Assembly (NCBI RefSeq): GCF_036507355.1
Contig: NZ_AP027877.1
From: Escherichia coli
GTDB lineage: Bacteria; Pseudomonadota; Gammaproteobacteria; Enterobacterales; Enterobacteriaceae
Strand: one strand, 5' to 3'
DNA: 64,000 nt
The position numbers were made by a program, and so were the translations under genes. Below, piece after piece: positions 2,249 to 53,276 of this stretch. Positions within the stretch are counted from its first letter, which is position 1, and every line of letters begins with the position of its first letter. The notes beneath the pieces were generated by a model. That model did no database searches, was not told the DNA's origin, and worked only from the letters and a program-made list of their open reading frames with translations.

Positions 2249-2833
2249 TTACTCCCTGACAGGGTTCGTAGGCCACTCAATATCAGGTGCAGTTGATGTA
2301 TCAACACGGTTCAGCAACACCCGATACTTTTTCCAGGCTTCCAGCAATGAGGTTTCTTCCTCCGTTGCGATTTCCAGATCCACAGCATCCTGAAGTGGCG
2401 CAATATGCTCACTGGCTACCTGCATCAGGCTGTTTTTTGTTTCTTCCGCCTCTCGGATCCGGAACAGTTTTTCTGCTTCTGCATCTTTCACCCAGGCTGT
2501 GCCGTTCCACTTCTGAAACTCCCCTTCCGGCGATAACCAGGTAACATTTTCCGGTAACGGACCGAGTTCAGAAATAAATAACGCGTCCCCTGACGCTACG
2601 TCATAAACCGTTTTACCCCGATGGTCTTCAACGAGATGCCACGATGCCTCATCACTGTTGAAAACAGCCACGAAGCCTGCCGGAATATCTGGCGGTGCAA
2701 TATCGGTACTGTTTGCTGGCAGACCTGTATGAGGCGGAATATATGCATCACCTTCACCAATAAATTCATTAGTTCCGGCCAGCAGATTATAAATTTTTAT
2801 GGTCCGTGGTTGTTCACTCATTCTGAATGCCAT
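2249..2833 (-). CDS. tfaR: tail fibre assembly protein
   Basis: 194-aa [23 protein letters not shown]... typical lambdoid Tfa, directly downstream of the tail fibre fragment. Confidence 0.85.
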
Positions 2834-3750
2834 TATGCAAGCCTCACAATGTAGTTAAATGCGATGTTTTTGACGGTGTTTTCCGCGTTACCCGCAGCGT
2901 TAACGGTGATGGTGTGTCCATGTGAGCCAATCGAAACAGAGTGCGTATGAGCACCAATTCCGACAGTATGTGCGTGAGCACCTGCAGATGCAGCTGTGCC
3001 GCTGACACTATGAGTGTGCGCTCCTGCAGCACTTGTATTCACACTGGCCGCAGACACAACCTTATGTACTGACCCATTTTGTGACTACTGGCTGACTGCT
3101 GATGCGCCTGTGACACTATGAGTATGGTTTCCGGCACTTGCGGCTGTACCGCTCACACTGTGTGTATGTGCCCCGGTGTTATTCGTAGATTTAGTGCCGT
3201 AATCAAACGACGATGTGGTTTTCGTACCCAAATCCGTACTGGATGCGCTGGCGCTGTGGGTGTGCGATTTAATACCGTCCTGTTCCTGAGACAATACGGC
3301 CCGACCACTGGCAGGTTTGCCCTTAATCGTCCAGCCACGCATATCAGGGATCACGCCTGACGGATAAGCGGCTGCAAGTTTCGGGTAAGCAGATTTGTCA
3401 AAAGTTTGCCCCTGCATCAGGGCATAGCCAGACGGAACGGTATCTGATGGCCACGGGATTGGTGCACCGACTGGATAAAACTCTGCAGGAGGATGAGCTG
3501 AGGTGTAAAGCTGCGCCCACGGCGACCAGTTTGCGTCGGTCGTATCCCGTCGTGAACGAATAAATGCCGGAGCATGAGCACCGCTTGTACCACTCCAGCC
3601 GATGAGTAACTCACCTTCGCCAACGGCTGTCATCCCTTTCAGGTGAATGATATTTCCATACGCTGTTGGATATCCGTTGTTATACACCTCGTATAACTCA
3701 AGACCTGTTGCCCCCTGCGTATTGTCTGTCAGCGCGGTTAGCCGCCATTG
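2833..3750 (-). pseudogene. stfR: side tail fibre C-terminal fragment with in-frame amber stop
   Basis: open frame from the TGA at 3751-3753 through ...[23 protein letters not shown]... with [13 protein letters not shown] repeats; TAG at 3085-3087 splits it; N-terminal bulk of the gene absent. Confidence 0.8.
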
Positions 3751-4217
3751 TCACCAAGAAAATCCCCGCCCTGCGACATAGCGATGGAAAGAGCAGGTAT
3801 TGATTCGTAGTACGCCAGCATTTCAGAAAGGATCGCATCCAGTTTCCTTATCGGAAAATAGGCCTGGTCATAGTTGCGATCCACCCGAAACTGGAACTCG
3901 TGATAATCATCATCGAGCTGAATGAAGTATTTACACCCGACCAGTTTTGCCTGGTCGAAACAGGCATTACGGGCGTAAAAAATTGAGCGGCGGTCACAGA
4001 AATTATCGGCTTCGTCAAAACGACTGGCGATATCGGCTTTGGAAAACACCAGCACCTGTTCACCAAATTCAGCCATGTACTGATGCCGTGTCTTATCTTC
4101 ATCATCAACAACGATAAAAATTTTCCCGGTATAGCCAGCACGACGCAACGTCCGGTAAGTCAGAACTTTGTCCGGTCGCCCGTGAGTCAGAATAAAGGCG
4201 CAAAAATCATCACGCAT
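3738..4217 (-). CDS. GT-A fold glycosyltransferase-like protein, probably C-terminally truncated
   Basis: 159 aa from the ATG overlapping the upstream stop (ATGCGTGA) behind a GGAGGAGGA RBS; motifs FILTHGRPD...IFIVVDDED and [23 protein letters not shown] resemble GT2 signatures including DxD. Confidence 0.5.
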
Positions 4218-5001
4218 ATTCCTCCTCCTCACCACCATGCATGATCTCCACCATGCGCTGCGTCATCCGGACAAATCCATTTTCAATAGCCTGCTGATAA
4301 TCAATGATCACCAGCGCCGACTCCTCGAAAAAACACTGAATTTCAGCGGGGGCGTGAGCGTAATAGTCCGCAATTCTGCTGAAATTAAACACCGTGTGAC
4401 GTTCTGCCGCACACAGGAGGAATTTCTCAATATCAGGCTCAAGGGACGCCGAACGTATCCGGCTGATCAGCTCCTGAGTTTTCGTATCGTCGTACAGTTC
4501 ACTGATATCCGGTTTACCGCCCGACGGCTCATAAACAGGCGTATCAATTTTCGTCGTATACGGCTCCTCCTCATTTCCTGTACCGGGCAAAACATCCGTC
4601 AACAGTTCATCAATTTCTGTCGGGATGAAGCCTGTCAGGGAGACATCAAAATCAGCATTGATTAGGTCCGACAGCTCCATCCGCAACAGATCTTCATCCC
4701 AGCCAGCATTCATCGGCAGGCGATTATCTGCCAGGCGGTACGCCTTTTTCTGCTCATCCGTCAGGCCAGACAGAACAATGACCGGAACAGAATCCATTTT
4801 GAGCATTTCAGCCGCCATAACACGACCGTGACCCGCAATAATTTCGCCCTTTTCGTCAATCAGCACCGGATTAGTCCAGCCGAATTGCTTAATACTTTCT
4901 ACCAGTTGTGCCACCTGCTCAGTACTGTGCGTCCTGGCGTTGTGCGCATACGGTGACAATTCTTGTAATGGGCGATAGACTATCTTTAATTTCTCGCTCA
5001 T
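4210..5001 (-). CDS. ParB/Srx-fold (ParB-like nuclease domain) protein, ynaK-like
   Basis: 263-aa ORF; N-terminal region with GHGR motif (IIAGHGRVMAAEML) typical of the ParB/sulfiredoxin fold; acidic C-terminus. Confidence 0.6.
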   Translation of the reverse strand: MSEKLKIVYRPLQELSPYAHNARTHSTEQVAQLVESIKQFGWTNPVLIDEKGEIIAGHGRVMAAEMLKMDSVPVIVLSGLTDEQKKAYRLADNRLPMNAGWDEDLLRMELSDLINADFDVSLTGFIPTEIDELLTDVLPGTGNEEEPYTTKIDTPVYEPSGGKPDISELYDDTKTQELISRIRSASLEPDIEKFLLCAAERHTVFNFSRIADYYAHAPAEIQCFFEESALVIIDYQQAIENGFVRMTQRMVEIMHGGEEEEYA

Positions 5002-5138: not shown

Positions 5139-6614
5139 TTAGGAGCGCCAAAAAAAACCTGAAAACAATATAATAACAGGATAAATTTCAAGGCGACCAA
5201 GAATCATAGCTATGCACATTAAACATTTTGCAATGTCATTAAGCACTCCGAATGACGATGCAGTAGCCCCAAAACCTAATCCCATATTATTAATACATGC
5301 AGCCACTGTTGCAAATGATGTAAGAAAATCATATCCCATACCATTTAACACCAGTATAAAAAACACCGTGAAGAGAGTATAAAGAAAAAAGAAACTCCAT
5401 ACAGACCTCATTACACGATCTGTAACTATCTTCCCTCCTACATTTACACTCAACAACGCTCTGGGATGAGAAAGCTGATTTATCTCGTGTTTGCTTTGTT
5501 TGAAAAGTATAAGAAATCGAAGTGACTTAATTCCACCACAAGTTGAACCTATACATCCCCCAAAGAAACTTGACAACAGCAAAAACACTATCGTGTGCGT
5601 GGGCCAACTTGCATAATCCTGCGTAGCTAAACCATTATCAGTGAGCATGGAGCTGGCAAGAAAAAACGAATGAATAAAACTTCCATGCAAGTCATACATA
5701 CCTATATGCCAGACCTGGAAAGAGGTAACAATGATCACCCCTAAGGCTATTAACAGAAAGAAACGAAGTTCAATATCTCTGATTAAAGGTTTTATCGTTT
5801 TCCTGCTAATAACAATATACCAAAGAGTGAAGTTGAAAGCCGATAGCAGGGAAAAAGAACCAGCCACCAGCTCAACCAAATAGTTATTAAAATATCCGAT
5901 ACTCTCGCTATGAGTTGAGAAACCACCAAGCGAAACTGTGGAAATCCCGTGACAAATAGCATCAAACAAAGGCATTCCTGCAAGTCTATAACAGACAATA
6001 CAAGCAATACCTAATAAAGAATAAGTTATCCACAGTGTCCGTGACGTATCGGCCAGGCGGGGAGTGAGTTTGTCATCCTTAAATGGCCCCGGCATTTCTG
6101 ACTGATAAAGCTTTGCACCACCAATACCCAATAATGGCAATACAGCAACCGCCAGAACAATAACTCCTAAACCACCTATAAAATTTAACTGTGACCGATA
6201 GTACAAATATGCCCGAGGTAATGAACTAACATCATCAATTACAGTTGCTCCTGTTGTTGTTATTCCAGAAACCCCTTCAAACAGAGCATCAATGAACGTT
6301 AAATTAAGTTCTGAGTCAATCCATAAAGGGAATGCACTAATAACAGAAAACAAAATCCAAAACATTACAATTATAATAAACCCATCACGGGTACGTAATT
6401 GAATGCCAGATTTCTTAGTTGTATACCACGCTCCGCCACCAATGCAAAAAAATATAACGAAAGTTATAAAGAAAACGAACAGGCTTTTTTCTTTATAAAA
6501 CAATGCTACAACCATTGGTGGCAACATTGAAAGACTATAGAGCCAAACCAGGAACCCACACATATGAGTAACAACTCTTACATGAGATGTATTCATATCT
6601 AAATATTCTTTCAA
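5139..6614 (-). CDS. trkG: Trk potassium uptake protein TrkG (prophage moron)
   Basis: polytopic membrane protein with TrkH/TrkG-type repeats; AT-rich relative to flanks; likely true start at 6596 (MNTSHVRVV...). Confidence 0.9.
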   Translation of the reverse strand: MKEYLDMNTSHVRVVTHMCGFLVWLYSLSMLPPMVVALFYKEKSLFVFFITFVIFFCIGGGAWYTTKKSGIQLRTRDGFIIIVMFWILFSVISAFPLWIDSELNLTFIDALFEGVSGITTTGATVIDDVSSLPRAYLYYRSQLNFIGGLGVIVLAVAVLPLLGIGGAKLYQSEMPGPFKDDKLTPRLADTSRTLWITYSLLGIACIVCYRLAGMPLFDAICHGISTVSLGGFSTHSESIGYFNNYLVELVAGSFSLLSAFNFTLWYIVISRKTIKPLIRDIELRFFLLIALGVIIVTSFQVWHIGMYDLHGSFIHSFFLASSMLTDNGLATQDYASWPTHTIVFLLLSSFFGGCIGSTCGGIKSLRFLILFKQSKHEINQLSHPRALLSVNVGGKIVTDRVMRSVWSFFFLYTLFTVFFILVLNGMGYDFLTSFATVAACINNMGLGFGATASSFGVLNDIAKCLMCIAMILGRLEIYPVIILFSGFFWRS

Positions 6615-6862: not shown

Positions 6863-6892
6863 TGATCCTACCCACGTAATATGGACACAGGC

Positions 6893-7759
6893 CTAAGCGA
6901 GGTTCTGGTTTTCAAATTGTTCCGGACTGAGGCCGCCACACCAACTGTGCCGCCGCCACCGATTGTAATCACATTCGATATAATTAAACACCGTTGCCCG
7001 CATTATTTCCCGGCTGATAAAGTGTTCTCCATGGATACATTCCACTTTCAGCGAATGAAAGAAGCTTTCCACGCAGGCATTATCGTAGCAGCAACCTTTT
7101 GCGCTCATACTTCCACGCAGATTATGCCGCTTCAGTTGCGCCTGATAATCTGCTGAACAGTACTGGCCTCCACGGTCCGTGTGAACGATAACGTTCCGGG
7201 GCCTCTTACGCCGCCACAGCGCCATCTGCAGGGCATCGCAGGCCAGTTGCGCCGTCATGCGTGGCGACATTGACCAGCCAATAACGGCACGTGACCACAG
7301 GTCAATGACCACTGCCAGATACAGCCAGCCTTCATCTGTACGTAAGTACGTGATGTCTCCTGCCCACTTCTGGTTCGGGCCACTGGCGTAAAAATCCTGC
7401 TCCAACAGATTTTCTGACACAGGCAGGCCGTGTGCGCGGTAGCTGACCGGGCTGAACTTCCGGGAGGCCTTTGCCCTCAGTCCCTGACGGCGCAGGCTTG
7501 CCGCCACGGTTTTTACGTTAAAGGGGTAACCCTGAGCACGCAGTTCATCCGTCAGGCGTGGGGCACCGTAACGCTGTTTTGACCGGGTAAAAGCCGCGAG
7601 GACAACGCTGTCGCAGTGTTGGCGGAACTGCTGACGCGTGCTTATCCTTGTCCGCCGCTGACACCACGTATACCAGCCGCTGCGGGCCACCCGGAGCACG
7701 CGGCACATTGCTTTGATGCTGAACTCAGCCTGATGTTTTTCAATAAAGACATACTTCAT
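6893..7759 (-). CDS. insF: IS3 transposase OrfB (DDE integrase domain)
   Basis: 288-aa [35 protein letters not shown]... with DDE-type catalytic region. Confidence 0.9.
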
Positions 7760-8064
7760 TTCAGGCGCTTCGCGAAGTATGTCGCGGCCTTTTGGAGGAT
7801 AGCCAGCTCTTCATCCCGTTCTGCCAGCTGGCGTTTGAGACGTGCAATCTCGGTAGACATCTCCAGTTCACGTTCAGAAGACGTCTGCTGATTTTGCTGT
7901 TTACTGCGCCAGTTGTAGAGCTGTGATTCATACAGGCTGAGTTCACGGGCTGCGGCAGTAACACCGATGCGTTCAGCAAGCTTCAGGGCTTCACTGCGAA
8001 ATTCAGGCGAATGCTGTTTACGGGGTTTTTTACTGGTTGATACTGTTTTTGTCATGTGAGTCAC
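7756..8064 (-). CDS. insE: IS3 transposase OrfA
   Basis: 102-aa HTH protein [34 protein letters not shown]... Confidence 0.9.
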
Positions 8065-8120
8065 CTCTGACTGAGAGTTTACTCACTTAGCCGCGTGTCC
8101 ACTATTGCTGGGTAAGATCA

Positions 8121-9500
8121 CCGGACGCAACTGAACATCATCAGGACACGCAGCCGCTGGATGCTCAGTCACAGGTAAATTCTGTTGATGCGAAATATCA
8201 GGAACTGCGGGCAGAACTCCATGAAGCCCGGAAAAACATTCCATCAAAAAATCCTGTCGATGCCGATAAATTGCTTGCTGCATCACGTGGTGAATTTGTT
8301 GACGGAATTAGCGACCCGAACGATCCGAAATGGGTAAAGGGGATCCAGACTCGCGATTGTGTGTACCAGAACCAGCCAGAAACGGAAAAAACCAGCCCAG
8401 ATATGAATCAACCTGAGCCAGTAGTGCAACAGGAACCGGAAATAGCCTGCAATGCCTGCGGCCAGACTGGCGGGGATAACTGCCCTGACTGTGGTGCGGT
8501 GATGGGCGACGCAACATACCAGGAAACATTCGATGAAGAGAGTCAGGTTGAAGCTAAGGAAAATGATCCGGAGGAAATGGAAGGCGCTGAACATCCGCAC
8601 AATGAGAATGCTGGCAGCGATCCGCATCGCGATTGCAGTGATGAAACTGGCGAAGTCGCAGATCCCGTAATCGTAGAAGACATAGAGCCAGGTATTTATT
8701 ACGGAATTTCGAATGAGAATTACCACGCGGGTCCCGGTATCAGTAAGTCTCAGCTCGATGACATTGCTGATACTCCGGCACTATATTTGTGGCGTAAAAA
8801 TGCCCCCGTGGACACCACAAAGACAAAAACGCTCGATTTAGGAACTGCTTTCCACTGCCGGGTACTTGAACCGGAAGAATTCAGTAACCGCTTTATCGTA
8901 GCACCTGAATTTAACCGCCGTACAAACGCCGGAAAAGAAGAAGAGAAAGCGTTTCTGATGGAATGCGCAAGCACAGGAAAAACGGTTATCACTGCGGAAG
9001 AAGGCCGGAAAATTGAACTCATGTATCAAAGCGTTATGGCTTTGCCGCTGGGGCAATGGCTTGTTGAAAGCGCCGGACACGCTGAATCATCAATTTACTG
9101 GGAAGATCCTGAAACAGGAATTTTGTGTCGGTGCCGTCCGGACAAAATTATCCCTGAATTTCACTGGATCATGGACGTGAAAACTACGGCGGATATTCAA
9201 CGATTCAAAACCGCTTATTACGACTACCGCTATCACGTTCAGGATGCATTCTACAGTGACGGTTATGAAGCACAGTTTGGAGTGCAGCCAACTTTCGTTT
9301 TTCTGGTTGCCAGCACAACTATTGAATGCGGACGTTATCCGGTTGAAATTTTCATGATGGGCGAAGAAGCAAAACTGGCAGGTCAACAGGAATATCACCG
9401 CAATCTGCGAACCCTGTCTGACTGCCTGAATACCGATGAATGGCCAGCTATTAAGACATTATCACTGCCCCGCTGGGCTAAGGAATATGCAAATGACTAA
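8121..9500 (+). pseudogene. recE: exonuclease VIII (RecE) C-terminal fragment, N-terminally truncated at the IS3 junction
   Basis: frame open from the IS3 boundary; ends ...[13 protein letters not shown] and overlaps the recT start as in Rac; about 460 of ~866 codons remain. Confidence 0.8.
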
Positions 9501-10302
9501 GCAACCACCAATCGCAAAAGCCGATCTGCAAAAAACTCAGGGAAACCGTGCACCAGCAGCAGTTAAAAATAGCGACGTGATTAGTTTTATTAACCAGCCA
9601 TCAATGAAAGAGCAACTGGCAGCAGCTCTTCCACGCCATATGACGGCTGAACGTATGATCCGTATCGCCACCACAGAAATTCGTAAAGTTCCGGCGTTAG
9701 GAAACTGTGACACTATGAGTTTTGTCAGTGCGATCGTACAGTGTTCACAGCTCGGACTTGAGCCAGGTAGCGCCCTCGGTCATGCATATTTACTGCCTTT
9801 TGGTAATAAAAACGAAAAGAGCGGTAAAAAGAACGTTCAGCTAATCATTGGCTATCGCGGCATGATTGATCTGGCTCGCCGTTCTGGTCAAATCGCCAGC
9901 CTGTCAGCCCGTGTTGTCCGTGAAGGTGACGAGTTTAGCTTCGAATTTGGCCTTGATGAAAAGTTAATACACCGCCCGGGAGAAAACGAAGATGCCCCGG
10001 TTACCCACGTCTATGCTGTCGCAAGACTGAAAGACGGAGGTACTCAGTTTGAAGTTATGACGCGCAAACAGATTGAGCTGGTGCGCAGCCTGAGTAAAGC
10101 TGGTAATAACGGGCCGTGGGTAACTCACTGGGAAGAAATGGCAAAGAAAACGGCTATTCGTCGCCTGTTCAAATATCTGCCCGTATCAATTGAGATCCAG
10201 CGTGCAGTATCAATGGATGAAAAGGAACCACTGACAATCGATCCTGCAGATTCCTCTGTATTAACCGGGGAATACAGTGTAATCGATAATTCAGAGGAAT
10301 AA
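9493..10302 (+). CDS. recT: recombinase RecT (single-strand annealing protein)
   Basis: 269 aa starting [24 protein letters not shown]... Confidence 0.9.
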
Positions 10303-10431
10303 TTCAGCCTGGCGGTGTAATGCACCGCCAACTTGAAATATTTTTTATGAGAAAAATTATGAGATATGACAATGTTGGTGATGCTGCCAACTTACTGATT
10401 TAGTGTATGATGGTGTTTTTGAGGTGCTCCA

Positions 10432-10707
10432 GTGGCTTCTGTTTCTATCAGCTGTCCCTCCTGTTCAGCTACTGACGGGGTGGTGCGTAACGGCAAAAGC
10501 ACCGCCGGACATCAGCGCTATCTCTGCTCTCACTGCCGTAAAACATGGCAACTGCAGTTCACTTACACCGCTTCTCAACCCGGTACGCACCAGAAAATCA
10601 TTGATATGGCCATGAATGGCGTTGGATGCCGGGCAACAGCCCGCATTATGGGCATTGGCCTCAACACGATTTTACGTCACTTAAAAAACTCAGGCCGCAG
10701 TCGGTAA
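10432..10707 (+). CDS. insA: IS1 InsA
   Basis: 91-aa [23 protein letters not shown]... zinc-finger/HTH protein; A6C frameshift motif near 10683. Confidence 0.9.
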
Positions 10708-11129
10708 CCTCGCGCATACAGCCGGGCAGTGACGTCATCGTCTGCGCGGAAATGGACGAACAGTGGGGCTATGTCGGGGCTAAATCGCGCCAGCGCTGGC
10801 TGTTTTACGCGTATGACAGGCTCCGGAAGACGGTTGTTGCGCACGTATTCGGTGAACGCACGATGGCGACGCTGGGGCGTCTTATGAGCCTGCTGTCACC
10901 CTTTGACGTGGTGATATGGATGACGGATGGCTGGCCGCTGTATGAATCCCGCCTGAAGGGAAAGCTGCACGTAATCAGCAAGCGATATACGCAGCGAATT
11001 GAGCGGCATAACCTGAATCTGAGGCAGCACCTGGCACGGCTGGGACGGAAGTCGCTGTCGTTCTCAAAATCGGTGGAGCTGCATGACAAAGTCATCGGGC
11101 ATTATCTGAACATAAAACACTATCAATAA
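10626..11129 (+). CDS. insB: IS1 InsB (expressed as the InsAB' frameshift fusion)
   Basis: 167-aa ORF overlapping insA in the -1 frame. Confidence 0.85.
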
Positions 11130-11322
11130 GTTGGAGTCATTACCGACAATGTTAAACCATGTCCATTTTGTGGTTGTCCATCAGTAACGGTGAAAGCCAT
11201 TTCAGGATATTACCGAGCGAAGTGTAACGGATGCGAATCCCGAACCGGTTATGGTGGAAGTGAAAAAGAAGCACTCGAAAGATGGAATAAACGAACCACT
11301 GGAAATAATAATGGAGGTGTTC

Positions 11323-11532
11323 ATGTATAAAATTACCGCCACTATTGAAAAGGAAGGTGGCACTCCTACTAACTGGACAAGATATTCAAAATCTAAACTA
11401 ACGAAATCAGAATGCGAAAAAATGCTCTCAGGTAAAAAAGAAGCAGGCGTTTCCAGAGAGCAGAAAGTAAAACTGATAAATTTTAATTGCGAGAAACTTC
11501 AGTCCTCGAGAATTGCATTGTATTCAAATTAA
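11323..11532 (+). CDS. ydaC: Rac prophage small protein YdaC
   Basis: 69 aa MYKITATIEKEGGTPTNWTRYSKSKL...; conserved position between ralR and xis. Confidence 0.7.
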   Translation: MYKITATIEKEGGTPTNWTRYSKSKLTKSECEKMLSGKKEAGVSREQKVKLINFNCEKLQSSRIALYSN

Positions 11533-11610
11533 AACTTCATAGCTGATTATTAATAATCAACATCGGGCGTCAATTTCAGTCTAACATTGGCGCCTGCCAG
11601 AGGTGATGCG

Positions 11611-11826
11611 ATGGCACAAGTAATCTTTAATGAAGAGTGGATGGTTGAATACGGCCTGATGCTTCGCACTGGTCTGGGGGCCAGACAAATTGAAGCATAC
11701 CGCCAGAACTGTTGGGTGGAGGGCTTCCACTTCAAACGAGTATCTCCTTTAGGTAAGCCAGACAGCAAACGAGGGATTATCTGGTACAACTATCCAAAGA
11801 TAAATCAGTTTATCAAAGACTCATGA
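11611..11826 (+). CDS. xisR: prophage excisionase
   Basis: small protein [33 protein letters not shown]... immediately upstream of the integrase. Confidence 0.7.
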
Positions 11827-19084: not shown

Positions 19085-19278
19085 GTAACCTCCTATGCAC
19101 CTTCACACGTCGTGATTCAGACGGGTTAATTGTTCATACTTACTGCATCGTTCCCTTCACAGATTGAAACAATACTCTACTTCATACCTGTGAGTATCTG
19201 CGCAGGCGGGGCATTTTATACTAGCCTGTTAGCAGTATCGAACAGTTTAGCCCGAGTTTAATTCAGCACAGGCTCCGA

Positions 19279-20792
19279 TCAGGATGATTTATTCATAGCA
19301 GGAACCAACAAAAATGCGATAAATAACAGACCACTGATTAGCAGAAAGGTATCCGAAAATGCCATAGTTTGCGCCTCCCTCAGCATCAATTGACTCAATA
19401 ATTTGGTTGAAGCCAGTATTTCCGATGTCTGGTCACTTCCACTGCGATTAAAAAATAAAGCACTTCTGGAAATGAAGTCATTCACCGTATGGGGAACAGA
19501 AACCATTTTTTCACCCATTCTCGAAAAATGAAAATTAGTTCGATTATTGAGAATAGAGCCACACAGGGCAATACCGATCGCGCCCCCAAGATTACGTGTT
19601 AAATTAAATACACCAGAGGCTAACTTCAGCCGTTCTTTTGGAATTCCCCCCAGCGTTAATGTTACGATGGGGGCCATCGCAAACTGCTGCGAAATCCCTC
19701 TAATTGCCTGTGGAAACAGTAACTCCTGCCATCCCCATTCGTGGGTTATAGGGGTAAAAAGATACATTGAAAACACAAATCCGCCCAGCCCCGCCATCAA
19801 CAGCCATCGCAGATTTATTTTTTTACTTAACCAGAAGTAAAAGGGAACAGAAAATAACTGGAAAATACCTGTTGTGCAAACGGCAAAACCTATCTCTTCG
19901 GCATTTAATCCGCGAATCTGCCCCAAAAACACAGGTATTAAATATACAGTAGAGAATATCCCAACTCCTCCAGAAAAAGAAAAAAACATCCCAGAGTGAA
20001 ATTTTTATCCTTAAAAGCATGAAGATCCATTATCGGATTGGATATTGTAAGTGTACGCGCAGCAAATAAAATAAAACTCACCAATGCCAGAACTGATGTC
20101 AGCAAAATAGTATTATCATCCAGCCATCCCCAGCGCGCTCCTTCTTCAAGGGTATATTCCAGACATCCCAGTGTCATGGCCAACAGGATAATACTCGGAT
20201 AATCAGCAACTTTCAGTAAAGAGAGATCAGGTTTATCAAAATTAACCAGAAAAGGAATACTCAAAACTAAATATATGCCAGGTAATATATTGATATAAAA
20301 TAGCCATCGCCAGTCGAGGTTATCAGTGATCCAGCCCCCCAGAGTTGGCCCTAGCGTCGGTGACAGTGAGGCCAGCGCACTGACTACCGCAGCAGCCAAC
20401 CCCAACTCTTTACCCTGGTAATAAATAAACGCCGTCGTGAAAACTAAAGGGATCATGGATGCGCCAGCAGCTCCCTGTAAAGCACGAAACAAAATCATGA
20501 TCTGAATATTCCATGCAAGTCCACACGCGATACTCATTAAAGTAAATATTCCCGCGGATAGAGTAAAAAGCCAACGAGTGGAAAATACCCGTGACAGCCA
20601 CCCAGAGAGCGGAATAACAATAATCTCAGCAATTAAATAGCTGGTCTGAAGCCAGGCCATTTCGTCTTTACCTGCGGACAGACCACCACCTATTTCATTT
20701 AGGGATGACGATACAATTTGAATATCAAGCTGAGCAATAAATAATCCCATACACATACTGGCGAAAGCAATATGTTTACGCATAGACATCAT
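19279..20792 (-). pseudogene. EmrB-like MFS efflux transporter, frameshifted in a homopolymer run
   Basis: two overlapping ORFs (284 aa and 236 aa) that together form one 14-TM-type MFS protein; frame break at the T/A run near 19977-19984. Confidence 0.7.
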
Positions 20793-21820
20793 CTCTCATC
20801 AACACTGACGGTGACGGACAGTCCCGGGCGAAGAAGTTGCTTTAATTCCTTTGCGTCGTCAAATGCAATCCGTACCGGGACACGCTGAACAATTTTGGTG
20901 AAATTGCCAGTGGCATTTTCTATCGGAATCAAGCTGAAACTGGCTCCTGTCGCTGGGGAAAGGCTTTCAATGTGACCGTGAAACACTTCCCCTTTGAGAA
21001 TATCAGCACGGATCTCAGCCTTCATTCCTGGCTTCATTCCCGCTATTTGGTTTTCTTTATAATTTGCATCAACCCACAACTCACTGACTGGTACTAGTGA
21101 AACTAACGATGTGCCGCCTTCCACCCAACTGCCTGTATGGGCGCTGCGGTTTGCGACAATGCCATCAATCGGCGCACGAACAAGGGTATATTCCAGATCC
21201 AGTAGTGCCTGAGTCAAAGCGGCCTGAACTTCTTCGATACTCGCACGTACGTTTTCTTCCTGAGCAGATAAAACTGCCAGCCGTTGCTTCTCCACCAGGA
21301 AATCGTTCGCGGCTTTGCGCTCCTTTGCTGCGACCTGCTGGTAGTCAAACCTGGCGTTATCAATAATTTGTTGCGATATTGCCGCTGATTGTGCGAGTTT
21401 TTCATAACGTTCAGTATCTCGCAGGCGCTTTTGCTCCTCATGTTTTACTGCCTGCCATGTTTCACTGGCACTTTGAATTATCGACTGCTGCATCGCAATA
21501 GTGGCTTGAATGCTTTCGAGATTGGCTTTGCTACTTTTTATTTTTGCCTCAAGCCTGGCGACATTTGCACGATAATCCCGATCATCGAGACGCAGGATAA
21601 TATCGCCTTTTTTTACGCTCTGATTATCGCGCACCTCTATAGCAGAAATATAACCAGAAACTTTACTTGCCACCGTGGTGATATTACCACCAATGTAAGC
21701 ATCATCCGTCGTCTGTATAAATCTTCCTTTGCTTACCCACCAGATAAAAAAGACAACGCCAGTCAAAAGAATACCGATCGCTACCACCCCAATAAGCTGT
21801 TTTTTAGAAATTATCATCAC
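20789..21820 (-). CDS. HlyD/EmrA-family membrane fusion protein
   Basis: 343 aa, N-terminal TM helix, long coiled-coil, C-terminal beta domain; start overlaps the MFS gene by 4 nt. Confidence 0.75.
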   Translation of the reverse strand: MMIISKKQLIGVVAIGILLTGVVFFIWWVSKGRFIQTTDDAYIGGNITTVASKVSGYISAIEVRDNQSVKKGDIILRLDDRDYRANVARLEAKIKSSKANLESIQATIAMQQSIIQSASETWQAVKHEEQKRLRDTERYEKLAQSAAISQQIIDNARFDYQQVAAKERKAANDFLVEKQRLAVLSAQEENVRASIEEVQAALTQALLDLEYTLVRAPIDGIVANRSAHTGSWVEGGTSLVSLVPVSELWVDANYKENQIAGMKPGMKAEIRADILKGEVFHGHIESLSPATGASFSLIPIENATGNFTKIVQRVPVRIAFDDAKELKQLLRPGLSVTVSVDER

Positions 21821-21913
21821 TCTTTACACCGTATATATCCGGAAACTTGCATACGTCATATTTAAAATTTAACATGGCTTATTTGATGATTTCTGACAAA
21901 ATACCTACTGTAA

Positions 21914-22729
21914 ATGACAATTACACTGCAACCCAAAGCATCACCAGGGCATCACATTATCGGACTGGATTCGGAACATCTGAATGGAGGTACAGTTCCC
22001 TGGCATAAACATCTCTATGCCCAGTTGCTTTACCCGGCTGAAGGAGTCGTTCGTGTATGGGCTGGAGAAAGCGTCTGGCTAGTCCATGCCAGCAGCGCGC
22101 TTTGGCTGCCCCCACAAATGCCGCATAAGTTTGTTGCGACAGGCAACGTACTTTTAAAAACCGTACTGGTTTCAGAAGCGGAAAGTGAAACGCTGGGAAC
22201 AGTTTGCTTCATGACGGGTATTTCACCCCTGTTAAGGGAATTACTAATTGCAATTAACCAACTTCCACCGTCGCAAAGTACCACAGATAAACAACAGTTA
22301 CGTTTTTCAGCCCTCGAGACACTGATACTTCAGGAAATAAAAATGGGGGTGAAAATGTCACTTGAACTCCCTTGGCCAAATGATGAGCGGCTACAGCAGC
22401 TTTGTGAGAATTTGCTAAACAACCAAGGGTATCTGCCAACACTGGATAATCTAGCGGATAAAATTAACGTCAGTAGCCGTACACTCATGCGCTTATTTGT
22501 TAAAGAGACGGGATTAACATTTCGCCACTGGGTTCAGCAAATGCACGTTATATCTGCAGTGACGCTTCTTGATGATGGATATTCGTTGACCAAAATTGCC
22601 CATCGTCTGGGCTATGCCTCAGCTGAATCGTTCGGCAATATGTTTAAGCGTCGAACGGGTTACTCGCCCGGTAAATTTACTCGTCGATTAACGATGCATG
22701 ATTATGCAATCACAAGACAAATGATTTAA
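21914..22729 (+). CDS. AraC-family transcriptional regulator
   Basis: 271 aa with cupin-like N-domain and C-terminal double HTH; divergent from the efflux genes. Confidence 0.75.
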   Translation: MTITLQPKASPGHHIIGLDSEHLNGGTVPWHKHLYAQLLYPAEGVVRVWAGESVWLVHASSALWLPPQMPHKFVATGNVLLKTVLVSEAESETLGTVCFMTGISPLLRELLIAINQLPPSQSTTDKQQLRFSALETLILQEIKMGVKMSLELPWPNDERLQQLCENLLNNQGYLPTLDNLADKINVSSRTLMRLFVKETGLTFRHWVQQMHVISAVTLLDDGYSLTKIAHRLGYASAESFGNMFKRRTGYSPGKFTRRLTMHDYAITRQMI

Positions 22730-22799
22730 CTTATATTTTCGTGAAATCTGTCACTGAAGAAAATTGGCAACGGATGGGTAAAACCGTTATAACACTGTC

Positions 22800-22893
22800 A
22801 CCGGTCACCAGGACCCCAGGCCGGATTTAAGACGAGGATGCACTGCTGTGTGTACTGTAGAGTCTGGCGGATGTCGACAGGCTCTATTTTTTT
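22800..22893 (+). ncRNA. mcaS: McaS-like small RNA
   Basis: accggtcaccaggaccccaggccggatttaagacgaggatgcactgctgtgtgtactgtagagtctggcggatgtcgacaggctctattttttt resembles remembered McaS; strand assignment tentative. Confidence 0.55.
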
Positions 22894-23272
22894 ATTCATT
22901 TTTTAGCTCTGTAAATAACCACATTCTCGCCGGGATTGGGGAATGAGTGACGAGATCAGTGGTGTCTGGCGGCTATCACGCCACAGAATCAAATAACAGA
23001 TAGCCTACGGTAAAATTTCGCTGACTGGAATTATCCCACCCTCGATCCATGTGATGGCTTGCCCTCATTTCTTCAGGCAGAAAAATCAAAAAATCGCTTT
23101 ATGCTATCAAACTGCGACAAACCAGACGCGAAACTGGGTACTTACTATTCGTTAGTCTTGCCCTATCCACTTATCTTTTTGGTGGTATGGCTGCTGATGT
23201 TGCTGGCGTGGTATCTTGTCGGTCTGCCGATAGGTCCGGGTATTTACCCACGTTTGTCTTAAGAGAGAACGG

Positions 23273-30319: not shown

Positions 30320-30481
30320 TCAGTATCTCCATACAATCTATTAATCATTTAAATGATAGGTCTAATCATGATTTTGGGTCTAATCAACTTAATGATCAAT
30401 ATCTATAGTGATATCACCAACCGTTGAATCGCCACGGGTTTAACAGACACCTCAGAGTCATTTAAGATGGCTTAAAGAGAG

Positions 30482-30766
30482 GTGCCCATGAGCGGTAAGC
30501 GTTATCCCGAAGAGTTTAAAATTGAAGCAGTCAAACAGGTTGTTGATCGCGGTTATTCTGTTGCCAGCGTTGCAACACGTCTCGATATCACCACCCACAG
30601 CCTTTACGCCTGGATAAAGAAGTACGGTCCGGATTCTTCCGCTAATAAAGAACAGTCAGATGCTCAGGCCGAGATCCGCCGTCTCCAGAAAGAGCTGAAG
30701 CGGGTTACCGACGAACGGGACATATTAAAAAAAGCCGCGGCGTACTTCGCAAAGCTGTCCGACTGA
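30482..30766 (+). CDS. IS3-family transposase OrfA (HTH)
   Basis: 94 aa MPMSGKRYPEEFKIEAVKQVVDRGYSVASVATRL... with leucine-zipper-like C-terminus. Confidence 0.85.
   Translation: MPMSGKRYPEEFKIEAVKQVVDRGYSVASVATRLDITTHSLYAWIKKYGPDSSANKEQSDAQAEIRRLQKELKRVTDERDILKKAAAYFAKLSD
30727..30734 (+). promoter_or_regulatory. putative -1 programmed ribosomal frameshift site (A-run followed by G)
   Basis: ttaaaaaaagcc near the end of orfA, typical position of the IS3-family orfAB slippery site. Confidence 0.5.
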
Positions 30767-30822
30767 GGTACGCCTTTATCCGTGACAACACCTGTTGCTG
30801 GCCTGTTCGCCTGCTCTGTCGG

Positions 30823-31635
30823 GTGCTGGATGTTCATCCCAGTGGTTTTTACGCCTGGCTTCAGCAGCCGCATTCACAACGCCATCAGGCAGACCTGAGG
30901 CTGACAGGGCAGATTAAACAGTTCTGGCTGGAATCGGGATGCGTCTATGGTTATCGCAAAATCCATCTGGATCTGCGGGACAGCGGGCAACAGTGCGGAG
31001 TGAACAGAGTCTGGCGACTGATGAAACGTGTCGGGATAAAGGCTCAGGTCGGATACCGGAGCCCGCGGGCACGTAAAGGCGAGGCCAGTATCGTGTCGCC
31101 CAACAGGCTCCAGCGACAGTTCAATCCGGATGCTCCGGATAAGCGTTGGGTAACGGACATAACCTACATCAGGACCCACGAAGGCTGGCTGTATCTTGCC
31201 GTGGTTGTTGATCTGTTCTCACGCAAAATTATCGGCTGGTCCATGCAATCCCGGATGACAAAGGACATTGTCCTGAACGCACTGCTGATGGCTGTATGGC
31301 GCCGTAATCCCCAAAAACAGGTGCTGGTTCATTCGGATCAGGGCAGTCAGTACACAAGCCATGAGTGGCAGTCGTTCCTGAAATCACACGGCCTGGATGG
31401 CAGCATGAGCCGTCGCGGTAACTGCCATGATAATGCGGTTGCAGAAAGCTTTTTCCAGTTGTTGAAACGCGAACGGATAAAGAAAAAGATCTACGGAACG
31501 CGGGAAGAAGCCCGCAGCGATATTTTTGATTACATCGAAATGTTTTATAACAGTAAGCGTCGGCATGGTTCCAGCGATCAGATGTCACCGACAGAATATG
31601 AAAACCAGTATTATCAACGGCTCGGAAGTGTCTAG
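30823..31635 (+). CDS. IS3-family transposase OrfB (DDE integrase)
   Basis: 270 aa with DDE residues in WVTDITY...HSDQGSQYTS...CHDNAVAESFF context. Confidence 0.85.
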   Translation: MLDVHPSGFYAWLQQPHSQRHQADLRLTGQIKQFWLESGCVYGYRKIHLDLRDSGQQCGVNRVWRLMKRVGIKAQVGYRSPRARKGEASIVSPNRLQRQFNPDAPDKRWVTDITYIRTHEGWLYLAVVVDLFSRKIIGWSMQSRMTKDIVLNALLMAVWRRNPQKQVLVHSDQGSQYTSHEWQSFLKSHGLDGSMSRRGNCHDNAVAESFFQLLKRERIKKKIYGTREEARSDIFDYIEMFYNSKRRHGSSDQMSPTEYENQYYQRLGSV

Positions 31636-31653
31636 ATTATCCGTGGCGATTCA

Positions 31654-31864
31654 TACAATTCTTCGCCCTGCCTGGCTGACGGATGAAGATATTATTGATT
31701 ATGAGCTTACCTCACGCAATGAACCATTCAAAGGTACGATCGTATCACGTAAGAGTGTCGCAGCATTAATTACAGATATCATCGATAAACCTGAGAAACA
31801 CATTGGTGAGAATATAGGCATCAATCAACCCGGGACTGATGGCGATAAGCCATTCTTCATGTAA
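31654..31864 (+). pseudogene. ycjY: C-terminal remnant of an upstream gene truncated by the IS (ycjY-like)
   Basis: open frame continuing from the IS end to a stop at 31864 (…KPFFM); only ~100 bp lies between pgrR and the IS, so the 5' part is missing. Confidence 0.4.
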
Positions 31865-32154
31865 ATCAATTATATAGCCACCATCGTACTGTACTATGTG
31901 CAGTACGATTTATTAAACTTATTAAGGTGAACTGATCAATCAGATGCGATTAACATGTGTAGAACCAGTAAGAATAAAATACGCCATGTATATAACATTA
32001 CGACAATTCTAATATCTGCACATCAATGAAAATACAAACAACTTCCGGCAAAAAGGTGATACAAGATCGATGACATAGCGTTGAAGAAAAGGATTTGATA
32101 ATCCGCAAAATTTGCACAACACTGCCTGTAATACTTCCTGAACCAGAGACGATC

Positions 32155-50596: not shown

Positions 50597-50972
50597 GAGA
50601 TGTTCCTTTTTATTTAATCCACATAACCTGCCAGGGGCGCAGCGTTATTTCATTACCCAATATATCAACTTCACTAATCAGATCCCGACCATGCAGATCA
50701 GTAATATTTACATGCTGAATATTTTCACTGACATTAAACAATCCAGTCAGACAATTACCATCAGCGTTACTTCTTTGAATACGCATTACGGATGAATTAA
50801 CCGTATCAATGGTAAAATTATTATCCGGATGAAACTCGTTATGGCTGCGACGAAGTGTAATTAAACGCGACAACTCATGATATACCGCATGCCTTAATGT
50901 AGCTTCATCGTTCAGTTGGTGATGCTGCCAACTTACTGATTTAGTGTATGATGGTGTTTTTGAGGTGCTCCA

Positions 50973-51248
50973 GTGGCTTCTGTTTCTATCAGCTGTCCCT
51001 CCTGTTCAGCTACTGACGGGGTGGTGCGTAACGGCAAAAGCACCGCCGGACATCAGCGCTATCTCTGCTCTCACTGCCGTAAAACATGGCAACTGCAGTT
51101 CACTTACACCGCTTCTCAACCCGGTACGCACCAGAAAATCATTGATATGGCCATGAATGGCGTTGGATGCCGGGCAACAGCCCGCATTATGGGCATTGGC
51201 CTCAACACGATTTTACGTCACTTAAAAAACTCAGGCCGCAGTCGGTAA
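50973..51248 (+). CDS. insA: IS1 InsA
   Basis: identical to the insA at 10432. Confidence 0.9.
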
Positions 51249-51670
51249 CCTCGCGCATACAGCCGGGCAGTGACGTCATCGTCTGCGCGGAAATGGACGA
51301 ACAGTGGGGCTATGTCGGGGCTAAATCGCGCCAGCGCTGGCTGTTTTACGCGTATGACAGGCTCCGGAAGACGGTTGTTGCGCACGTATTCGGTGAACGC
51401 ACGATGGCGACGCTGGGGCGTCTTATGAGCCTGCTGTCACCCTTTGACGTGGTGATATGGATGACGGATGGCTGGCCGCTGTATGAATCCCGCCTGAAGG
51501 GAAAGCTGCACGTAATCAGCAAGCGATATACGCAGCGAATTGAGCGGCATAACCTGAATCTGAGGCAGCACCTGGCACGGCTGGGACGGAAGTCGCTGTC
51601 GTTCTCAAAATCGGTGGAGCTGCATGACAAAGTCATCGGGCATTATCTGAACATAAAACACTATCAATAA
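51167..51670 (+). CDS. insB: IS1 InsB
   Basis: identical to the insB at 10626. Confidence 0.85.
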
Positions 51671-53276
51671 GTTGGAGTCATTACCCGTTCAGTTCTCGTG
51701 TTATCTCTTCACTGTGATATTTTTTACGGTTAATCGCACGGTTATATCCGAGTTTTTCGACACCTGCGTAATCATTACGCGAGCCCAGAATACTTTGAAT
51801 ATATATCGCTGGCACACCGGGGAAACTTAACAAAATCGCATGGGCAAGGATAAACCTGGCGCAACGTTCTTCATCGCTACTCTCGCGGCGGCTTAACGCA
51901 TCCATATAGGTGACATTTATTTCATAGGGACTGCGCGTACCGTCGGGATTATTTTTCCAGTTTACTAATGCACCTTCCTGCTGTAATGCCTCGATCAGCG
52001 CTAATATTTCGCTTTCTGGTAACAAGCCCCGCAGTGGGTTCAGCCCGATGCCATCGTGAGAGGCGAGGAAGTTAAACCAGGTCGTTTTACCGGAGGGCAA
52101 GCTCAGACTTTGCGCCCACTGGCACAGCGCCTCGACGTTCTGTTTTTGCACCGCATGTAACACCAGCGGCGGCAGCGAGAACTGGTACACCATATGCGCT
52201 TCGTCATCGCCTTCGCCAAAGTAAGCAATGTTATCTTTATGCGGAACATTCGTCTCAGTAATAATCACCGTACCTGGCGCGATGTCATCAATAATCGACC
52301 GTAACAGTTTGATAATCAGATGTGTTTTTTCCAGATGGATGCAGCTTGTTCCCGGCTCTTTCCACATAAAGCCAACGGCATCCAGACGGACATATTCTGC
52401 GCCCTTTTCCAGGTAGCACAGCAATACATCCACCATCGCCAGCAACACTTCAGGGCTACGGTAATTGAGGTCAATTTGATCGTCGCTAAAGGTGGTCCAT
52501 AAATGGCGCGTGGAATTATCATCCATTTGAAACGGCGTTAATAGCGGTAACGCACGCGGACGGGTGACGGCACTGAGATCGGTTTTCGGATCAACCGCAA
52601 TAAAGAAATCTTTAAAACCCGGAAGCTGTTGCAAATAGTTTTTAAACCATTCACTTTTTGCCGACATATGGTTGCAGACAAAATCAAACATTAAATGACT
52701 GCATTCACCGAGCTGCTGAATATCCTGCCACTCCCCCGCTTCACTGGCGACCTGATGATAATCAATTACCGAAAATCCATCATCAGATGACCATGGATAA
52801 AAAGGTAATAAATGAACATGTGAAAAAATGCTTTGCAGCCATTGGTGGTAAAACTGATTAAATGTGGGTAGTGGTTTTAAATCATTACTGTGAAATTGAT
52901 CGGCATAGGTAATTAACACGACGTCACTTTCATCCCAGTGTTTTTTACGTCGCTGTGTAATTAATCGTTTCGCACTCTCAAGACGCGTTACAAGTTTCTG
53001 TAAATGAGTTGCGGTAAATGTTCCACCGTAGATTTCGCCCAGGTAATCCGTAATTTTCTGTTTCATGTTGCCTTTCCGTGGTAGCGGTCCCATGAAACGA
53101 GAGACTACTCCGCAGAAAATAAACTGTCAATTGAGCACAAGGGTTTTAGTCACGCAGGAAATCATTTTTTACCAGGGAAAAAGCGTATTTGTGAGCTGAC
53201 GCAAATAATCTATAGGGATGTAAATAAGGTGTGACAGAAAAAAACGGCGCATAAGCGCCGCTCATGGTGAATTCTT

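Follow-up and report, generated by a model that had tools for sequence, protein, structure and literature searches.

The window analysed here, by which the whole 64-kb stretch of Escherichia coli DNA is meant, contains a remnant of the Rac prophage. [quoted passage not shown] The ralR gene is split by a copy of the insertion sequence IS1. The features of this locus are as follows.

10359-10376, plus strand: 5' fragment of ralR (codons 1-6), aligning to the K-12 ralR start at 1413927
10368-10376: left copy of the target-site duplication GACAATGTT, which is the 9-bp overlap of the K-12 alignment pieces
10377-11144, plus strand (transposase oriented as ralR): complete IS1 of 768 bp, similar to IS1A copies, with Pfam and NCBIfam matches
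10377-10399, plus strand: left inverted repeat (IRL) of IS1, GGTGATGCTGCCAACTTACTGAT, matching the reverse complement of 11122-11144 at 18 of 23 positions
10432-10707, plus strand: insA, 91 aa, with a GTG start
10681-10689, plus strand: site of the programmed -1 frameshift, TTAAAAAAC (A6C motif), which gives InsAB'
10686-11129, plus strand: insB' frame, the catalytic part of InsAB', open to a TAA stop
11122-11144, minus strand: right inverted repeat (IRR) of IS1 (reverse complement GGTAATGACTCCAACTTATTGAT), pairing with IRL at 18/23
11145-11153: right copy of the target-site duplication GACAATGTT
11154-11330, plus strand: 3' fragment of ralR (codons 7-64 and the stop codon), with GTG at 11190 as its sole in-frame start (46 aa)
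11258-11273, plus strand: 16-nt RalA-pairing site in the ralR mRNA, repeated at 11430-11445, with 11 contiguous bases AAAAAGAAGCA
11323-11532, plus strand: rcbA (ydaC, DUF1187), with a start that overlaps the ralR stop and its own GGAGG Shine-Dalgarno sequence
11329-11507, minus strand: ralA, antitoxin sRNA of 179 nt, matching Rfam RF02694 with 225.1 bits (gathering score 170) over model positions 1-179

The first-pass annotation of this DNA described ralR as a frame that starts at 10359 and reads MRYDNV, is interrupted after codon 6 by a complete 768-bp IS1 with a perfect 9-bp target duplication, and resumes as KPCPFCG. This description is borne out at every point. The codons ATG AGA TAT GAC AAT GTT are present at 10359-10376, IS1 occupies exactly 10377-11144 according to both a reading of the sequence and a script, the 9-mers at 10368-10376 and 11145-11153 are both GACAATGTT, and the frame resumes from 11154 and ends with a stop codon at 11328-11330. 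Inspection of the flanks thus finds the 9-mers duplicated and the ralR frame continuous without IS1. The identity across the ends of IS1 ends at 9 bases, with the 10th base being different, and GACAATGTT occurs only twice on both strands of the window. For an element to be followed by the same 9 bases that precede it, the chance is 4^-9, or approximately 4e-6. When 10359-10376 is joined to 11154-11330, a 195-nt open reading frame (ORF) is formed, which encodes the 64-aa protein MRYDNVKPCPFCGCPSVTVKAISGYYRAKCNGCESRTGYGGSEKEALERWNKRTTGNNNGGVHV.

The flanks of IS1 align to 1416166-1413910 and 1413918-1409000 of the K-12 MG1655 genome with identities of 99.9% and 99.5%, respectively, and these two alignment pieces overlap by exactly the 9 duplicated bases. 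The sequence composed of 10250-10376 and 11154-11620, from which IS1 and one repeat are removed, is an exact substring of the K-12 genome. Thus, without IS1 and one copy of the duplication, the stretch that begins upstream of ralR and includes rcbA does not differ at any base from K-12 MG1655, which carries ralR (lar, b1348) and ralA (b4714). This match pattern is that of an IS insertion into a known empty site and is not a chance resemblance. A comparison with related strains for an uninterrupted ralR, which the first-pass annotation proposed as a check, does find one. Many E. coli genomes match the empty site at 100% over 1,124 bp, and at least 80% of this 1,124-bp segment is present in one place in 1,547 of 5,426 E. 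coli genomes.

The target of this insertion is AT-rich, because the GC content is 19% over 10330-10376, as compared to 49.6% over the window. IS1 prefers AT-rich targets. Between recT and ralR, a GC-rich hairpin (GGCGGTG-TAATG-CACCGCC) is present within 10306-10345, and a T-run follows some bases further. The sequence TGCACCGCC, which is duplicated by a separate IS1 in E. coli 2017.02.04CC, falls inside this hairpin. A scan of promoters and terminators gives nothing above the chance level that bears on the conclusion.

The element in ralR has the features by which the IS1 family is recognized, which are a length of approximately 768 bp, imperfect inverted repeats of approximately 23 bp, an A6C -1 frameshift site and a 9-bp target duplication. 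It is 99.9% identical to the E. coli copies annotated as IS1A, and its closest known counterpart is the IS1A-type IS1 of E. coli and Shigella. A -1 shift at TTAAAAAAC opens a 232-aa InsAB' frame, which matches the NCBIfam model transpos_IS1 (NF033558) with 244.8 bits against a cut-off of 100. The Pfam matches are PF03811 and PF12759, which are the two InsA domains and lie on insA, and PF03400 (DDE_Tnp_IS1), which lies on the insB' frame. The element looks transposition-competent, because its parts are intact and because an identical second copy with its own duplication is present in the window.

This second complete IS1 is located at 50918-51685, approximately 40 kb away from the copy in ralR, and is 100% identical to it and in the same orientation. 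It interrupts ycjM, the gene for glucosylglycerate phosphorylase, at K-12 position 1371588-1371596, and is flanked by its own 9-bp duplication CGTTCAGTT. Both copies carry a single-base variant, GGCATTGGC, at 10647-10652 and at the equivalent position in 50918-51685. It alters codon 73 of InsA from V to I, such that InsA reads MGIGL in both window copies, as compared to MGVGL in the canonical InsA. The best IS1 copies across 5,426 complete E. coli genomes show a maximum identity of 99.9%, with one nucleotide being different, and the GGCATTGGC variant is absent from the best IS1 copy of each of these genomes. Among public assemblies, 161 blocks contain the variant InsA, and CP151548.1 has several copies of it. 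The presence of two identical IS1 copies, each with its own matched duplication, indicates two recent independent simple insertions, and the copy in ycjM points to recent IS1 activity in the lineage.

The surroundings of ralR show that Rac was already a decayed remnant before IS1 was inserted, with an IS3-associated deletion having taken racR, kilR and the 5' half of recE. The window includes ompN (74-1207), uspF, tail-fibre and ParB-like fragments, and trkG (5139-6614, minus strand). An IS3 of 1,258 bp, with orfA and orfB on the minus strand, is located at 6863-8120 and directly abuts the truncated recE. The 7.35-kb segment 1416166-1423516 of K-12, which contains the 5' half of recE, racC, ydaE, kilR, sieB, racR and ydaS to ydaW, is absent, and IS3 stands in its place. 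Rac is thereby deprived of its immunity, kil and replication region. The recE remnant (8271-9500) is C-terminal and corresponds to positions 469-877 of the NCBIfam RecE model of 877 positions. Thus, as compared to the Rac prophage of K-12 MG1655, this one has ralR split after codon 6 and has lost the 5' region of recE, racC, kilR, sieB, racR and ydaS to ydaW. The recET-ralR block is left without its native upstream control region, because K-12 1416166-1423516 is missing. Neither the decayed state of Rac nor the identical IS1 40 kb away was noticed in the first-pass annotation.

Several other differences are observed in and around Rac. The late region of Rac (2271-4748) is reduced to fragments, in which tfaR and the 3' end of stfR are only 89% identical to those of K-12. 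Approximately 1.3 kb (3477-4748) has no counterpart in K-12 Rac and includes a ParB-like ORF (4210-5001, minus strand), and pinR, ynaE and lomR are absent from the remnant. A rac-like prophage in ttcA is also reported for S. sonnei 53G (PMC4632033). Outside Rac, a different cassette takes the place of K-12 abgABT-abgR at 19094-23110. In the E. coli that matches best, NZ_OZ282453.1, this cassette has genes for a DHA2 efflux permease, an HlyD-family protein and an AraC-family regulator. The region 30425-32025 is not collinear with either K-12 (ycjY, ymjC and ymjD) or NZ_OZ282453.1 (two alpha/beta hydrolases and an SDR) and is a variable chromosomal islet.

When the two ralR fragments are joined, the rebuilt 64-aa protein matches the RalR equivalog NF007260 with 166 bits (cut-off 113), the Lar subfamily TIGR03655 with 55.3 (cut-off 39.6) and PF14354 (Lar_restr_allev) with 53.5 (cut-off 28.6). 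Such an uninterrupted frame, as expected of RalR/Lar, is not found in the window, where IS1 follows codon 6. Translation from the native ralR start gives the 14-aa peptide MRYDNVGDAANLLI, which is terminated by a stop 8 codons inside IS1. The TAA stop of insB' (11127-11129) is in the ralR frame, and no ATG, GTG or TTG follows it before GTG 11190. The 46-aa ORF starting at this GTG is the largest remaining one. No Shine-Dalgarno sequence is evident in front of it, and it is without the first Cys-x-x-Cys pair, because Cys9 and Cys12 of the four-cysteine motif are lost. It falls under both NCBIfam cut-offs, with scores of 109.1 for NF007260 and 32.8 for TIGR03655. Five contigs of public assemblies in which the 46-aa ORF is called represent other 5' variants of ralR, and they contain no exact 23-bp left inverted repeat of IS1. 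A PDB sequence search gives only weak matches to a chitin-binding protein (E = 0.0023 and 0.016), and no matched stretch passes alone. We infer that ralR::IS1 is a null allele, because the native start leads to a stop after 14 aa and the remainder has no in-frame start before GTG 11190, no evident ribosome-binding site and no first Cys pair. RalR activity would then be lost, regardless of whether it is that of a DNase toxin or a Lar-type alleviation of EcoKI.

The first-pass annotation regarded the interruption as a clean insertional inactivation of the restriction-alleviation function of the prophage. The insertion, the duplication and the frame stand, whereas the function named corresponds to just one of the two descriptions in the literature. 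According to King & Murray (1995, cited in PMC3177214 and PMC4041452), Lar/RalR of Rac alleviates restriction by EcoKI and enhances modification, and Roberts et al. (2011, PMC3177214) cite the same work for the finding that removal of Lar raised EcoKI restriction. Lar/RalR has been proposed to act on EcoKI in the same manner as Ral of phage lambda, which alleviates restriction and enhances modification by type IA systems (PMC3177214, PMC12707154), but the identity between lambda Ral and RalR is only 24%. Guo et al. (2014), on the other hand, described RalR as a non-specific DNase dependent on Mg2+ or Ca2+, which is the toxin of a type I toxin-antitoxin pair and is toxic on over-production, and reported no restriction-alleviation role for it (PMC4041452). 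The reported phenotype of RalR/RalA is a response to fosfomycin (PMC4041452). RefSeq and NCBIfam currently name RalR the toxin of the RalR/RalA type I pair. The role of RalR is disputed in the literature, with the more recent description contradicting the anti-restriction label, and the exact function lost is therefore uncertain.

The gene for the antitoxin, which was overlooked in the first-pass annotation, survives 185 bp downstream. The ralA gene is intact and identical to that of K-12, and K-12 b4714 maps to the same coordinates. RalA is a 179-nt Hfq-dependent sRNA, which is encoded on the opposite strand inside ydaC and has a 16-nt stretch of ralR coding sequence as its pairing partner (PMC4041452). 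The two members of the 16-nt repeat are intact and both lie 3' of IS1, in agreement with this description. An expressible toxin accompanied by an antitoxin, as is expected of a toxin-antitoxin pair, is not found, because the toxin gene is split while the antitoxin is intact. Judged from its sequence, the locus is an orphan antitoxin beside a dead toxin gene, because ralR is interrupted while ralA and the pairing site are intact. The translation signals of rcbA are intact as well, but any transcript that enters the gene from upstream has to pass through IS1, an element whose insertions are classically polar. It is probable from this general behaviour of IS1 that transcription of rcbA from upstream is reduced.

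The ralR::IS1 allele is absent from 5,426 complete E. coli RefSeq genomes, and the exact 39-mer at the left junction has no match in the GTDB species representatives, JGI metagenome contigs or IMG/VR. No IS1 is found in ralR among the loci sharing the exact intR or dbpA allele of the window. Most of the loci with the exact IntR or DbpA allele have an uninterrupted 64-aa ralR, and the exceptions are one locus with a 68-aa call, two loci in which ralR is uncalled and four DbpA loci without Rac. Both alleles are so widespread that they say little about the lineage. Two records of the 5,426 cover at least 80% of the interrupted query and represent different IS1 events, not the same allele. NZ_AP027754.1 (strain 2017.02.04CC), which is matched in two pieces over 1,901 bp, has an intergenic IS1 in the opposite orientation and an intact ralR, and the end of the duplication TGCACCGCC lies 30 bp upstream of the ralR ATG. 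In NZ_CM142773.1 and NZ_CP196120.1, IS1 is accompanied by deletions that affect recT or rcbA-intR, and the annotation still includes ralR. These three records likewise have IS1 within the recT-ralR-rcbA-intR stretch of Rac.

These results are explained, with high confidence, by an ordinary simple transposition of IS1, which had the AT-rich beginning of ralR in a Rac remnant as its target and produced a 9-bp duplication and a null allele. A transposition-competent IS1 would have entered the start of ralR by simple transposition, such that 9 bp of the target were duplicated. The insertion is most likely a recent and selectively near-neutral by-product of the IS1 activity of the lineage, because an identical IS1 is present in ycjM and because the region upstream of recET-ralR had already been lost to the IS3-associated deletion. 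If IS1 were excised precisely between the two 9-bp repeats, which would be a rare event, the wild-type ralR would be recovered without any change. The loss of function, the polarity on rcbA and the neutrality are what we infer from the sequence.

It is unlikely that the knockout of ralR was selected. According to this explanation, the IS3-associated deletion of RacR and the control region would have led to constitutive, sbcA-like transcription of the truncated recE, recT and ralR, with the end of IS3 as one conceivable origin, and the DNase would have become harmful. In its favour, racR and the whole immunity region are gone, IS3 directly abuts the truncated recE, over-produced RalR is toxic (PMC4041452), and independent IS1 events are found nearby, one of them 30 bp upstream of the ralR ATG (NZ_AP027754.1) and two accompanied by deletions. 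However, three Rac remnants, including that of NZ_AP027754.1, retain an intact annotated ralR although they have no racR and a truncated recE. RalA, which neutralizes RalR, is intact in the window, and the transposase genes of IS3 face away from recE, with an outward promoter being hypothetical. In addition, IS1 is found near ralR in only 3 of 5,426 genomes, which does not represent a hotspot, and the AT-rich target alone accounts for the site. A slightly lower probability still is given to the fuller form of this explanation, in which the loss of ralR after sbcA-like de-repression was adaptive and the orphan RalA is perhaps free for other targets.

It is very improbable that the junction between IS1 and ralR is an assembly artefact, in which a repeated IS1 is collapsed or misplaced. 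IS1 is multi-copy, the two copies in the window are identical, and the allele is seen in no other searched dataset, but the element is flanked by a perfect 9-bp duplication, whereas misassembly makes no target-site duplications, and apart from this repeat the flanks are the same as in K-12, with an overlap of precisely these 9 bp. The explanation that the IS1 copies at 10377 and 50918 are the ends of a 41-kb composite transposon, or the products of recombination between IS1 copies, has a negligible probability and is effectively ruled out in spite of their identity, common orientation and spacing of 40 kb, because either event would give mismatched flanks, while the two flanks of each copy carry the same duplication (GACAATGTT around the first and CGTTCAGTT around the second) and the DNA between them is collinear with K-12 and other E. 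coli chromosomes.

Simple transposition of IS1 is thus the preferred explanation, and the event is a textbook case of a pseudogene formed by IS1 insertion into a decayed prophage, which is nothing new in kind and carries little weight beyond annotation. The correct annotation of the locus is a ralR pseudogene (ralR::IS1) with an intact ralA, rather than a functional anti-restriction or toxin gene. The variant GGCATTGGC of IS1 could serve as a lineage marker. The two direct copies of IS1, 40 kb apart, are potential substrates for deletion or duplication of the segment between them, which bears on genome stability. The rcbA gene may be under-expressed in this strain. The RalR/RalA pair is predicted to be non-functional in this strain, and Rac would lack whatever Lar-type effect it might otherwise have on type IA restriction.
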